NCBI GenBank assembly: GCA_964016885.1
Contig: OZ024743.1
Coordinates: 226,858,001-226,922,000 of the forward strand
From: Eledone cirrhosa
Taxonomy: Eukaryota
Reading direction: 5' to 3'
DNA length: 64,000 nt
The stretch's first letter is position 1. Every line of letters begins with the position of its first letter. Below the pieces are notes generated by a model. That model was not told where the DNA came from, searched no databases, and worked only from the letters and a program-made list of their open reading frames with translations. Of this stretch, positions 13,759 through 56,504 are shown piece by piece. The position numbers were made by a program, and so were the translations under genes.

Positions 13759-13960
13759 AATATATATATATATATATATTGAAAGGGTAACACACTAGAG
13801 AGAGAAAGAAAGAACGTGTGCCATCAATAAAACAGGGAAAATCACCAGTGTATGGAATCTATAACCTATGGAAGCAGGGTAGACATACAATAATTGAAAA
13901 TATAAATTAACATGCATATACGCAACTTTATATAACACACATAATATATAACTATATAAC

Positions 13961-14044
13961 ACACGCGTACAAATCAAAAGAAGATCTGTTTCGCCAGGAA
14001 ATTGTTGACTGGAATGGGATCGCCTATGGGTCATCAGCGTGTAG
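13961..14044 (-). ncRNA. Hammerhead mirror copy (2-nt deletion in stem I)
   Basis: Reverse complement of 14179-14261 with a few substitutions; core is intact. Confidence 0.7.
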
Positions 14045-14178
14045 TGGTTTTTGGGCTGCCCTTTCTAGCAGCTCGTCCCTCCGATACCACTGGTTCGCTG
14101 TGCTACATACGCTGTCACATCTCTCTGTCACGTGTTGCTGGACGGTTGTCTTAGATTTTCTTAGAGTTGTCTGGAACT

Positions 14179-14261
14179 ACACGCGCTGATGACCCATAGG
14201 CGATCCCATTTCAGTCAACAATTTCCTAGCGAAACAGATCTTTTTGGATTTGTACGCGTGT
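14179..14261 (+). ncRNA. Type I hammerhead ribozyme with long stem III
   Basis: acacgcg-CTGATGA-(stem II ccatagg..cctag)-GAAAC agatc tttttg gattt GTA-cgcgtgt. Stem I is 7 bp and stem III is 7 bp. Confidence 0.8.
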
Positions 14262-14677
14262 GTTATATAGTTATAGAGGTGCGTATATGCATTTTAATTT
14301 ATACTTTTAATTATTGTGTGTCTACCCTGCCTTCCATAGGTTATAGATTCCATACACTGGTAATTTCACCCGTTTTATTGATCGCACACGATCTCGCTCT
14401 CGCTCTCTTTCTCTCTCTCTTTCTCTCTCTCTCTCTCTCTCCCTCTCTAGTGTGTTACCCTTTCAACATATTGTATTTTAAAGAGCTCAGGATTCCTTTC
14501 CCTTCGAACACATAATTTACAGGGAATAACGAGTGTCTATGGCTCCGTTAATTTATCGTGATATATATATATATATATATATATAACGAAGGAAATGTGG
14601 TAAGGAACCAGATGGACCATAACGCACCAAAGTACTCAATACTTAGAGTAGGAGAGTGGGTAATAGGAACGAGTAGG

Positions 14678-14772
14678 ACCCCGACGGCTGAGCTCAAGCC
14701 TTTCGACGGCTAATTCTGGACTAAATGAACATTTTTATCCTGGTACATGAATAGCCGAGCTTCTCAGGGGGT
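14678..14772 (-). ncRNA. Hammerhead-like fold, variant core CUGAGAA
   Basis: acccc-CTGAGAA-gct cggcta...tagccg tc-GAAA-ggct tgagctc agcc-GTC-ggggt. Confidence 0.55.
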
Positions 14773-16256
14773 AATTCCATGTATGGTAAAAGTGATTGTC
14801 ACAGGGATTGGTCAAAAGTTTGTTGTTGAAACACATAATTCTATCATGGCATTTTGTGGACGGAAGGGGTAGCTGAACCTGCCAGTAGAAGAAGGAGGTA
14901 GAGGGAGTGGAGGAAACCCAGTCGTTGATAGTGCCAACTACAGCAGAATCCTAAGGATAAGAGGTCAAGAGAAGTATACTAGGGAGGAGGAGGAGGGGGA
15001 GGAAGTCGAAACAATAAGTAAATCAATAATGGAGTAAATATATAGAAGAATAATAAGAATGTTAAAAATATAAAAAAAAACAATTTCTGCTTACTATTCC
15101 CCTACCACAATCGTCAAGTCTCTCACTGGTACTGCTAAACTATAGAAAAGTTTAATAGGTGGGTGGGATGGAATACTAAATACGAGATTGTAGTGAAAGA
15201 ATTTTATGAGTTAGTAGTAATCGACCAAATCTATCTTACAGTGACAGGTCAACAAGTAGGGGGCCAAAATACTAAAGAAACTACTACGAAATAATAATTC
15301 AGAATCCCGAAAATGAATATTAATACGATATATAAGAGTACCGCTACGATACATAAATTCTAATACAAACTACATAAATGCTCGTACGATATATATGAAA
15401 AATTTAATAAGAAACATTAATTCAGAATACCCCCCCCCCCCCCCCCCAAAAAAAAAAAATAAATACTGATATACGAGAAACTAAAGCAGATATACCACTA
15501 AGAAATCTAGAAAACACGGAAATGGGCAGCAATCGGATAAGAAAGCAAGTATCTGGGGTCTATCACATCTGCTATAAAAAGCGGAGTCGACCAATTCTAT
15601 CATAGAATAGGGTATGAGGTGGGGGTACTGAGGCTACAAAGGACCGAATGGCTGCCTCGGGGTGGGGGAGAAAGTGAAAAGGACGACGACAAAGAAGGAG
15701 AACTGGGGTGGAAGGACTAGGAAGGGATGGCGGGAGAAGGAAATATAGAGGAAACGATGAAAAATATATAAGAAAATCTTACGTCTACCTTTGCAAGCAG
15801 GGCTTACCCATTACAAAGTCGGCAAGTAGGGTGTTACAGCCCTTGTCTACCCCCCCGGGTCATTATGGGGTTTGAGGGCGAGGTAAGTCCTACGCAATCT
15901 GTGTTTGCATGCAGTTACCAGTTCGTCTTTCTTGTTTAGGAGTGGGTCCGTCGAAAACAGCATTTGTAATGTTTCCTCCGAGCATGAATTACACAGACGG
16001 CGTCCTCCCGTGTAAGAGTTGGCTCTGGACAGTAAGCTCCAAGTGAGATCATAGGTTATATTGTTATATTTGAGGCCCCCTTTTATGATTCAGCTGTAGT
16101 TGGCACGACTGGCTTTCCTCCTTCCCTTTCCCTCTTTCATCTACTGGCAAGTTCAGCTACCCCTTCCTTCCACAAAATGCCATGATAGAATTATGTGTCC
16201 CAACAACAAACTTATGACCAATCCTTGTGACAATCGCTTTTAACATATATGGAATT

Positions 16257-16352
16257 ACACCCTGAGAAACTCGGCTATTCATGTACCAGGATAAAAATGT
16301 TCATTTAGTCCAGAATTAGCCGTCGAGACGGCTTGAGCTCAGCCGTCGGGGT
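16257..16352 (+). ncRNA. Hammerhead-like fold, variant core (mirror; GAGAC for GAAAC)
   Basis: acacc-CTGAGAA-act cggcta...tagccg tc-GAGAC ggct tgagctc agcc GTC-ggggt. Confidence 0.55.
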
Positions 16353-54073: not shown

Positions 54074-54823
54074 ATATACATATATATGTGTGTGTGTATA
54101 TATGTATGTATATATGTATATATGTGTGTATATATGTATGAATGTATATACATATATACAAACCATCATACATATATATGTGTGTGTGTATATATGTATG
54201 TATATATGTATATATGTGTGTATATATGTATGAATGTATATACATATATACAAACCATCATACATATATATGTGTGTGTGTATATATGTATGTATATATG
54301 TATATATGTGTGTATATATGTATGAATGTATATACATCTATACAAACCATCATACATATATATGTGTGTGTGTATATATGTATGTATATATGTATATATG
54401 TGTGTATATATGTATGAATGTATATACATCTATACAAACCATCATACATATATATGTGTGTGTGTATATATGTATGTATATATGTATATATGTGTGTATA
54501 TATGTATGAATGTATATACATCTATACAAACCATCATACATATATATGTGTGTGTGTATATATGTATGTATATATGTATATATGTGTGTATATATGTATG
54601 AATGTATATACTTATATACAAACCTTCATACATATATATGTGTGTGTGTATATATGTATGTATATATGTATATATGTGTGTATATATGTATGAATGTATA
54701 TACTTATATACAAACCTTCATACATATATATGTGTGTGTGTATATATGTATGTATATATGTATATATGTGTGTATATATGTATGAATGTATATACATATA
54801 TACAAACCTTCATACATATATAT
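54074..54823. repeat. 92-bp minisatellite built from microsatellite motifs (~8 copies)
   Basis: The anchor tacaaacc(a/t)tcatac recurs every 92 bp, and ORF-track starts are also spaced by 92. Confidence 0.92.
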
Positions 54824-56031
54824 GAAAGCATACATACAATACATACATTGATCCGATATTCATTCAATTAGATCTCTCCTTCCACTCCAAAGGATTTTTA
54901 AACGTTTCGAAGTTTAGCTCGTTCTTTCACGTCAATGAACCCTGAATACAATTTAATTACTCAGTGAGAGGAGTTGATCCAGAAACTCATGCGATCAATA
55001 TTAAGAACCAACCATCCAGCCAACAGGGCATATATATATGTATATGTATATATGTATATGTATATATATATGTGTGTGTGGGTGTGTGTGTGTGTGTGTG
55101 TGTCTATAATGCATGTCTATCTTTGTGTGGGTGTGCATAGTATTGTCCTTATGGAAATATGAATGTAGAATACGTACACACACCGATGTATATATATATA
55201 TACAAAGAGAGAGAGCGGATGCGGAGAGGAGATAATAGATCTCCTATGATTACAATGATATCTTATTTAAAATAAAGGACCAGGGACTTTAATTTGATGG
55301 CATGTTCAGAACAATGTATCATGAATACATTACCTAATGTGGGCAAATATATTAAAAGTATTCATTTCATTATAATTTCCCTTCTCTTTCTCTTACTTTC
55401 ACTTAATCACTCATTATCCTCCGCTTCTAACTGTCTTTCATTTCGACGTTATATCTATATTAATCATTCTCTCATTCTCACATATTCCTTCGTTATCACA
55501 CCACTGTCTCTCCCTCTCTTTTATTTTCAAGTCATCCATGTATTTCTCATCCTCGCCTTCCATAACTACATGCCAACTTCATTTTGCGATTTTTTTTCAT
55601 GTATGTTGCAGACGACGCGAAGGGATTTAGACAATCATATCGACCACAGTGTACATTTCGTTAAGTCTGGTATTATTTTATCGATTTCATTTTGCCCAAC
55701 TGCTCGATTACGGGACATAAACAGTAAACAACACATACGTACTTCCATACTCTCATCCCATATATATATATATATTGAGAGAGAGAGAGAGAGTATTTAC
55801 GTATCGAGAGAGAGAAAAATATATATATATATTTATACATGTATATATATATATATATATATATATATATATATATATATATATATATATATATATATAT
55901 ATATATGTAGGAGGTGAGTGTTATTGTAGTACAATAAAGCAATGCAGATATCGGATAAGAAGCACTCTACAGTTTGTGGGACTGGAGTATGCATAATATA
56001 AGATCAAAAGATGGTTAAAGGAGTTCAATAT

Positions 56032-56100
56032 ATTTTATTATGCGCATTTCAAAAACAAACATCATCAAACAATAATATTTGTGTTTTCATCAGATAAAAC
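56032..56100 (-). ncRNA. Minimal type I hammerhead ribozyme (mirror copy)
   Basis: Reverse complement of 56223-56291. Confidence 0.82.
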
Positions 56101-56222
56101 AGGAGAACATGATATGAAGGCTAAAAAAACACTTGTTGATAGTGCAGTTTTAAATCAACATATGTTGATTTAAAACTGCACTATCAACAAGTGTTTTTTT
56201 AGCCTTCATATCATGTTCTCCT

Positions 56223-56291
56223 GTTTTATCTGATGAAAACACAAATATTATTGTTTGATGACGTTTGTTTTTGAAATGCGCATAATAAAAT
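56223..56291 (+). ncRNA. Minimal type I hammerhead ribozyme
   Basis: gttttat-CTGATGA-aaacacaaat...gtttgttttt-GAAA-tgcgca-TA-ataaaat, with palindromic ATGCGCAT in stem/loop III. Confidence 0.82.
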
Positions 56292-56349
56292 ATATTGAAC
56301 TCCTTTAACCATCTTTTGATCTTATATTATATATATATATATATATATA

Positions 56350-56504
56350 TTGTTATACTTTGGGAGGGTCATGTTGCCAATAAGAAACACACGCACCAGT
56401 GCGTGTGTTTCTTATTTGCAACATGACCCTCCCAAAGTATAACAATATCGGTTTCAACACACGATTTCAGATAAAGAATCTTGCTAAACAAATTCAGAAA
56501 CGAA
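56350..56504. mobile_element. Mini-palindrome of the 34998-35870 family (3' end only, no HHR)
   Basis: Arms 56350-56396 and 56399-56445 with a 2-nt loop. The tail 56446-56504 matches the reverse complement of 34998-35058. Confidence 0.82.

Follow-up and report, generated by a model that had tools for sequence, protein, structure and literature searches.

Palindromes at (TA)n in the Eledone cirrhosa genome: probable truncated ends of seven Penelope-like families and a retrozyme with the same scars

A 64,000-nucleotide (nt) stretch of the Eledone cirrhosa genome (contig OZ024743.1, positions 226,858,001 to 226,922,000; here, the window) carries eight inverted repeats, each bounded by TA repeats and holding hammerhead-like ribozyme folds, and it raises the question of what these repeats are and how a mobile element comes to be written into DNA as its own mirror image. 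An earlier note, made from the letters alone, had read them as sequence-unrelated elements, seven of them non-coding and moved in trans by the machinery of a Penelope-like element (PLE). Our analysis points elsewhere. In all likelihood seven of the palindromes are the 5'-truncated ends of seven autonomous PLE families, each encoding a reverse transcriptase (RT) and a GIY-YIG endonuclease, and the eighth is a protein-free retrozyme with a 537-nt unit; the mirror shape would come from a cut (TA)n run whose two strand ends both prime on one RNA. As systems, the elements belong to known kinds. The window, which is rich in TA, CA, and GA runs, comes from a large animal genome (3.0 Gb assembly) and is densely populated by PLEs. 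What this genome offers is families that are young and near-identical and have open frames, along with hundreds of junctions that can be read, so that models of insertion make different, countable predictions. The elements are named E1 to E8 in the order of the earlier note (Table 1).

Insertion structure and the families behind it

Self-alignment of the window placed eight inverted repeats where the note had put them, with TA runs at both outer ends. An unpaired extension, the tail, is present on exactly one side in all eight (43-102 nt; on the left except in E1 and E6, where it is on the right), and the hammerhead-sense strand runs outward on both sides in 8/8 elements, because the motif is placed in the pseudo-long terminal repeat (pLTR) near the 3' end of the element. 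The absence of primary similarity asserted in the note holds for the DNA of the window copies (highest z 1.3); the wider statement that the elements are unrelated in sequence does not, as the intact tails of E4 and E8 are homologous (z 5.1; 0/300 shuffles) and the proteins of the five Hydra-clade families are 32-56% identical where the copies overlap. Two further family stumps, absent from the note, are given at the end of Table 1.

The note had called for genome-wide checks of arm polarity and of (TA)n enrichment. A search of the genome with each arm returned 84-3847 first-look candidates, and 30 loci were fetched per family, taken from the best-scoring 30-40 matches per query with a span of ∼1.5 kb. 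In all fetched loci, with duplicates taken out, opposite-strand pairs without a TA run between them were head-to-head in 186 cases and tail-to-tail in 0, which extends the non-random polarity beyond the window; pairs with a TA run between them (14 tail-to-tail, 6 head-to-head) are likely neighboring insertions. The enrichment was likewise borne out: (TA)4 follows 243/275 short (untailed) ends, compared with 7-12% of random positions, and 259/292 tail ends in six families. The tail-end values for E1 (30/77) and E3 (6/35) are brought down by read-through and by a TA-like stretch that belongs to the element itself. Each family has two discrete 3' ends. One tail was counted in 129 of the 186 pairs, two in 50, and none in 7. 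We note that 33 of the 50 two-tailed pairs are E7 rows, where the tail test matched TA flanks and mis-called even the window E7; a separate tally of this family gave 16/17 one-tailed, and 124/148 pairs are one-tailed when E7 is left out. The other 17 comprise 13 pairs from loci whose tail reads into an open reading frame (ORF) and 4 E1 tandems. The proposal that PLE machinery targeting (TA)n routinely yields head-to-head palindromes with a one-sided tail is thus upheld, and this is an already published PLE insertion structure (PMC8557442, Figure 2 legend; PMC3846280).

The claim that a single element encodes protein did not survive, as E2 keeps the last 74 codons of its own GIY-YIG domain. More broadly, six of the seven elements taken to be non-coding ribozyme retroelements (E2, E4-E8) are each linked to their own RT/GIY-YIG ORF in longer copies. 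Contiguous long copies in which RT and endonuclease frames run into the family end were found for E2 (L250), E5 (L253), E6 (L243, L245), E7 (L251), and E8 (L255). In L257, an RT frame, a CxCX5C linker, and a broken endonuclease run into an E4 end, and the untranslated region of this copy matches that of L146 at 87% over 1.4 kb. The idea, drawn from its fixed 5' end, that E4 is a non-autonomous family resembling short interspersed elements was dropped, as L257 carries the ORF. On the hammerhead strand the GIY-YIG C-terminus ends at a near-constant distance upstream in 6/30 E2, 6/30 E7, at least 9/30 E5, and at least 4/30 E8 loci. The tail continues into the ORF start in E2, E5, E6, E7, and E8 (copies L076, L170, L185, L187, L235, and L402), which is the pLTR arrangement, and five ORF-start queries gave 337-1616 first-look candidates each. 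In E3 the 3' end is repeated before the ORF as a partial tandem (L249, L269); no pLTR repeat before the ORF was seen for E4 among its loci.

Clades were assigned by motifs (PMC8557442, section 11) and not by a tree. Judged in this way, E2, E4, E6, E7, and E8 are Hydra-clade PLEs. RWR and DKT are present in E6 and E7 and DKT in E2 and E8, with the RWR of the E2 copy L076 split by a frameshift; the CxCX5C linker, CxxC, and CxH, without CCHH, are complete in E4, E6, and E8, and the last linker Cys is mutated in the examined E2 and E7 copies. E3 has DKG, the CX4CxxC linker, and CCHH, and by these motifs is Neptune-type; its protein matches Pfam GIY-YIG, with RVT_1 below its cut-off. E5 can be called only Neptune-like, on the motifs of a partial, decayed ORF (linker intact in L170, decayed in L253). 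We hold the family identities of E1-E8 with high confidence. Among named proteins, one from Argonauta hians is closest to the E6 protein (46% identity). Two full-length E3 copies (L248, L249) have a 476-residue upstream frame that overlaps the RT frame, which suggests a frameshift.

E1 is the one element for which the non-coding description holds. Reading on from its tail, ∼200 nt lead into the hammerhead and from there round to the tail again, so that the sequence closes into a unit of 537 nt that has no ORF. First-look searches gave 1803 and 2930 candidates, and no linked ORF was seen in two sets of 30 loci. Counted by eye, one continuous, near-whole unit is present in 25/30 junction loci, and part of a second unit lies directly upstream in 16/30; the longest regular array among 30 loci is ∼1.75 units. 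Many copies cross the predicted cut site, and therefore the template was likely a circle or an uncleaved tandem transcript. Its scars suggest that E1 is likely mobilized by the same PLE enzyme.

Formation of the palindromes

Three sets of counts bear on how the second arm is made. First, partner arms resemble each other in detail. Across 130 palindromes they share 317 minority alleles versus 71 expected and 58 pair-private alleles versus 2 expected, and the partner is the nearest arm, ties included, in 70/130. The shared private variants indicate that both arms come from one template or were homogenized later. Second, in a tally of 109 palindromes (E1 excluded), the tail lies on the longer arm in 27, on the shorter arm in 25, and 57 have no centre. 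A fold-back copy cannot hold a tail that its template arm lacks, and therefore simple fold-back is not the general rule. Third, some families have fixed 5' ends: 18/30 E4 ends fall within 2 nt of position -179, and 13/27 E8 ends fall at -164 to -176; in E2, E5, E6, and E7 the 5' ends spread over hundreds of bases. The E4 end lies within an initiator-like TCACT, a word described in a rotifer pLTR (PMC3846280), and by eye a G replaces the C before this end in 14/23 elements, as a copied cap would give.

On balance, and with modest confidence, we favor one sense RNA primed twice over self-priming. The PLE endonuclease would cut both (TA)n strands. One DNA end would prime at the downstream RNA start site and give the tailed arm, and the other would prime at the upstream site, 43-102 nt away, and give the short arm. 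Both cDNAs would extend toward the same RNA 5' end, or stall; the first would presumably be displaced, and their 3' ends would then join, likely via short complementarity. E4 and E8 were likely primed within the 5' pLTR and then copied up to the capped transcription start. In vitro, full-length PLE protein, a predicted dimer, is described as cleaving and extending both strands and as initiating at two sites within the RNA, which delimit the tail (PMC11167929). The fuller proposal, in which a dimeric RT/endonuclease copies a single capped RNA from two fixed starts, makes the one-tailed palindrome as its standard product, and also moves the 537-nt retrozyme, is offered tentatively, as rather less than probable in its entirety.

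Several points weigh against this reading of the insertions. Fold-back copying, or gene conversion acting later within a hairpin, would also produce the shared arm variants, and in the 57/109 palindromes without a centre the order of synthesis is unreadable. Antisense self-priming, put forward to explain head-to-head palindromes (Arkhipova 2013, PMC3846280), may apply here too. About 8 of the 14 extra G letters at the E4 end could stem from the partner arm. In vitro priming is described as proceeding without homology to the cut DNA (PMC11167929), whereas here the element reads on in TA/AT letters past the tail end in 7/7 families where this is visible. No autonomous E1 partner was found among 576 loci, and the sampling of best-scoring, short-span matches biases the loci toward close, short copies.

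The strongest alternative accepts the same family identities and has the mirror arm made by self-priming, through fold-back of the cDNA or self-priming of an antisense RNA (Arkhipova 2013), with the endonuclease later trimming one end, which would give the tail. It would account for the private variants of partner arms and the missing centres, its antisense version is argued in PMC3846280, and a recurrent E4 junction (7 loci) has the form of a 6-nt hairpin loop closed at the 5' end. That junction, however, could also be obtained by two cDNA ends annealing in trans. The tailed arm is the shorter one in 25/52 readable cases, and a fold-back copy cannot exceed its template arm; the fixed 5' ends at a sense initiator, with the extra G, point to a capped sense template. 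We regard self-priming as the less likely reading.

The view of the earlier note, that the seven ORF-less elements are separate non-coding families moved in trans by one PLE, fares far worse and is now very improbable. It is true of E1, it agrees with the lack of significant DNA similarity among the window copies, and E4 and E8, mostly short copies with a fixed 5' end, may form independently amplifying short sub-lineages. Against it, six of the seven run into their own ORFs, which refutes it for E2, E5, E6, and E7; the 5' ends of these four families are scattered, and ORF codons persist even in the window copy of E2. Finally, an origin of the palindromes as fold-back artefacts, introduced by long-read sequencing or by assembly, is scarcely credible: young arms are 99-100% identical, and contigs of three runs at an E3 junction did not span the stretch, one contig showing a different opposite-strand joint (neither of which we count as evidence), but arms of older families differ by 2-7%, arms end at two family-specific positions with a tail on one side only, and (TA)n lies on both sides without mirrored flanks, often with an unpaired one-strand centre enclosed.

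At two loci (L285 ∼1250-1490 and L240 ∼960-1380, in hammerhead sense), two different hammerhead families are joined head-to-head without an intervening TA run. Should each be one event, these candidates would show two RNAs at one site; they can also be adjacent insertions. Neither priming on both strand ends as a model for PLEs nor the E1-E8 element set was found in the literature searched, which included few subscription journals and main texts only; the supplementary lists of Hydra families and hammerheads that accompany PMC8557442 could affect the claim to novelty. The origin of tandem and inverted PLE structures is presented as an open problem in PMC8557442.

Hammerhead motifs and other features of the window

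The earlier note had also placed a type I hammerhead fold in every arm. A relaxed type I descriptor, which tolerates a basal mismatch in stem II as well as a long stem III, was passed by 8/16 arms. Its 8 matches in the window all lie within elements, the left ones on the minus strand and the right ones on the plus strand, and 100 dinucleotide shuffles of the window gave a mean of 0.06 matches (maximum 1). Stricter descriptors, which missed long stems III and the mismatch at the stem II base, gave only 2 and 4 matches. Among the failing arms, two have intact cores and weak stems (E1 right and E5 left, by eye), two have a decayed core with C3 changed to U (E4 right and E5 right), and four are those of E2 and E7, where the core is non-canonical across the family. 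In fetched copies the descriptor was passed by 21/30 (E1), 30/30 (E3), 25/30 (E4), 29/30 (E6), and 25/30 (E8). The Rfam scan, of which 150 of 320 matches were listed, is dominated by microRNA models on TA repeats; among the matches listed, Hammerhead_1 marks two E6 arms only, at 31.7 bits, under the gathering score of 34. None of the eight single motifs examined had a significant minimum-energy fold (z -2.0 to +0.5); the fold of the E1 left hammerhead contains stems I and III.

The core of E2 reads CUGAGAA in 25/30 copies and that of E7 reads CAGAAGA in 28/30, with the canonical core in 0/30 copies of either. Both depart from the consensus C3 U4 G5 A6 N7 G8 A9 (PMC3088659); stems I-III and an NUH triplet can be drawn. 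Despite these cores, each family has >1300 candidate copies. Such spread fits either cleavage that is not needed or undescribed active variants. Minimal hammerheads are described as weakly active and dimer-dependent (PMC4209133), and cleavage as dispensable for insertion in vitro (PMC11167929). Active variants with U4A or a missing N7 were not found in the literature searched, and the query combining hammerhead with U4A gave nothing. We suggest with some reserve, since it stands jointly with double priming and retrozyme mobilization, that two thriving Hydra families either may have no working hammerhead or may use such variants.

Hammerhead cleavage was considered as the origin of the 5' ends and is unsupported, with at most a hint in E3. 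In ORF-linked E3 copies, 3/27 resolved 5' ends fall within 2 nt of the predicted cut, and five extra copies added 0. Genome-wide patterns in which the E3 end adjoins a TA run matched 5 loci at the cut and 8 loci over 15 upstream positions; across 31 positions around the cut there are ∼34 loci, 5 of them at the cut (by eye), with no clear excess. No 5' end lay within 5 nt of the cut in 30 loci each of E2, E6, E7, and E8, or within 10 nt in 39 loci of E5. As separate observations, the giant palindromes of two ORF-bearing E3 copies (L249:5195-5559 and L310) have centres at the predicted cut or within 8 nt of it, and in E2 and E7 loci (duplicates not removed) very short arms cluster 30-46 nt upstream of the predicted cut, possibly reflecting either RT stalls at hammerhead hairpins or a start site.

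Table 1. Coordinates of the palindromic elements and their parts in the window
Feature	Position	Strand	Parts	Description
E1	13779-14560		left arm 13779-14039 (-); right arm 14043-14471 (+); tail 14472-14560	non-autonomous hammerhead unit of 537 nt inserted as a palindrome; non-LTR retrozyme type
E1 left hammerhead	13960-14045	-		canonical core, long stem III, predicted cut after 13968; descriptor
E1 right hammerhead	14180-14261	+		intact cores, weakened stem II, predicted cut after 14254; read by eye, fails descriptor
E2	14585-16366		long arm 16079-14665 (-); tail 14662-14586; short inverted arm 16083-16365 (+)	5'-truncated Hydra-clade PLE
E2 GIY-YIG C-terminus	15853-16074	-		74 codons with CxxC and CxH; 92% identity with the ORF in copy L250
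E2 hammerhead-like fold	14677-14772	-	mirror 16257-16352 (+)	non-canonical core CUGAGAA, family 6-bp stem III, GUC triplet; limits by eye
E3	16421-22840		arm 19333-16464 (-) with tail 16463-16421; arm 19336-22838 (+)	Neptune-type PLE, both arms 5'-truncated, head-to-head
E3 RT and GIY-YIG ORF	19978-22305	+	mirror 19324-16997 (-)	775 aa, stop to stop
E3 upstream frame, 3' part	19313-20071			precedes the RT and GIY-YIG ORF
E3 minimal hammerhead	22681-22719	+	mirror 16621-16583 (-)	predicted cut after 22714; descriptor
E4	34317-34757		arms 34561-34384 (-, tailed), 34597-34757 (+)	solo-pLTR palindrome, old Hydra-clade PLE; both arms end at the family's fixed 5' end
E4 hammerheads			34493-34432 (-); 34667-34727 (+)	C3 decayed in the plus-strand motif
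E5	34998-35870		arm 35471-35059 (-), tail 35060-34998; arm 35471-35869 (+)	truncated Neptune-like PLE
E5 minimal hammerheads			∼35236-35194 (-); ∼35679-35721 (+)	C3 decayed in the plus-strand motif
E6	36611-38468		short arm 37109-36610 (-); long arm 37109-38366 (+); tail 38367-38468	truncated Hydra-clade PLE
E6 hammerheads			36706-36651 (-); 38270-38325 (+)	
E7	50770-51124		arm 50981-50856 (-), tail 50856-50770; arm 50996-51124 (+)	truncated Hydra-clade PLE
E7 hammerhead-like fold	50930-50880	-		non-canonical core CAGAAGA
E8	55907-56330		arm 56161-55993 (-), tail 55992-55907; arm 56162-56330 (+)	solo-pLTR palindrome, Hydra-clade PLE, without spacer
E8 hammerheads			56101-56031 (-); 56222-56292 (+)	
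Ninth palindrome	56346-56504		arms 50-55 nt, tail	E5-family stump; falls short of the hammerhead
Solo E7-family stump	52003-52123	+	36 nt, tail	

Other mobile elements share the window. A Helitron Rep/helicase with a 1278-residue open frame (Pfam Helitron_like_N, PIF1) occupies 41200-45036 and 44933-45760 (-), its N-terminal part in the adjacent frame. An RT fragment of a non-LTR retrotransposon (RVT_1) and its likely C-terminal piece lie at 10598-11533 and 9313-9831 (-). A decayed C-terminal piece at 31454-31993 (-), followed by an (AAT)n run, resembles the restriction-like endonuclease of an R2/NeSL-type element. A further family, not one of the eight, has ends facing across a (TA)32 run at 6961-7176, and an apparently similar end lies just left of E1 (13700-13750). 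Two 188-nt copies of another repeat lie in opposite orientation at 985-1172 and 63148-63335, and at 29132-29519 a 193-nt segment with a TA run in it is perfectly duplicated in tandem. Elsewhere in the genome, four identical E6 ends ∼10-12 kb apart (G000:C4:77739423-77771478) and four alike E2 junctions (C20:16253044-16313026) mark segmental tandem arrays that carry insertions. Beside the E6 copy in L245, a 423-residue open frame (3241-4509, -) is presumably a host gene for a galactose-3-O-sulfotransferase.

Comparison with known systems

In the twin priming of L1 (Ostertag and Kazazian), both target strand ends are said to prime cDNA on one RNA, giving an inversion; the second primer reportedly lands upstream, so that nothing is duplicated. 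In the insertions described here, by contrast, both primers would start near the 3' end, which is thereby duplicated as a palindrome.

Among PLEs, a close likeness is to the Hydra-clade elements with a C-terminal endonuclease (EN+) described by Craig et al. (2021, PMC8557442), whose reported hosts are aquatic invertebrates, molluscs among them. To the extent that the copies cover these regions, E2, E4, E6, E7, and E8 share with them RWR in place of RWK, DKT, the CxCX5C linker, CxxC and CxH without CCHH, a hammerhead in the pLTR, and insertion at (TA)n. Tails in the Hydra families here measure 77-102 nt, compared with the 30-40 bp described for PLEs; E6 exceeds 4.3 kb, whereas Hydra elements are given as <3 kb; and five Hydra families are present here, four of them with >1300 first-look candidates, where that study reports few (PMC8557442). 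Canonical hammerheads are called universal in Hydra (PMC8557442), yet E2 and E7 lack the canonical core. E3 agrees with Neptune-type PLEs (Arkhipova 2006, as cited in PMC8557442) in DKG, the CX4CxxC linker, CCHH, an overlapping upstream frame, a minimal hammerhead, and a bias for microsatellites, and the endonuclease end of E5 is similar.

The insertions match those of Penelope (PMC3846280; PMC11167929) in the head-to-head inverted 5'-truncated copy, the palindromic junction, the optional tail at one end, the TCACT initiator in the pLTR, the solo pLTRs, and the tail as the gap between two RT starts. Head-to-head inverted pLTRs with palindromic junctions are described as the commonest arrangement (PMC3846280). 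Unlike in Penelope insertions, a target-site duplication is unreadable here within (TA)n, and the solo pLTRs with a fixed 5' end look like direct products and not like deletions. What is new lies in the detail: the longer tails, a retrozyme with PLE scars, solo pLTRs with fixed starts, two variant cores, and counts that separate the models.

E1 resembles metazoan non-LTR retrozymes (Cervera and de la Pena 2020, PMC7229834; Li et al. 2026, bioRxiv 10.64898/2026.07.22.740005) in its ORF-free head-to-tail unit, single type I hammerhead, high copy number, and co-occurrence with PLEs. It differs in unit length (537 versus ∼170-400 nt), in regular arrays of at most ∼1.75 units in 30 loci, in a 7-bp stem III, and in showing (TA)n targeting together with an inverted arm and the tail of a PLE; in the main text of either source, retrozymes are not described with the words "tail" and "inverted". 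PLEs have been proposed as the movers of animal retrozymes (PMC7229834), and phylogeny is reported to support this role (bioRxiv 10.64898/2026.07.22.740005); the case has so far been argued from co-occurrence and sequence relationship. If our joint reading with double priming is true, the PLE-specific tail and inversion on E1 would be direct genomic evidence for the enzyme that moves animal retrozymes.

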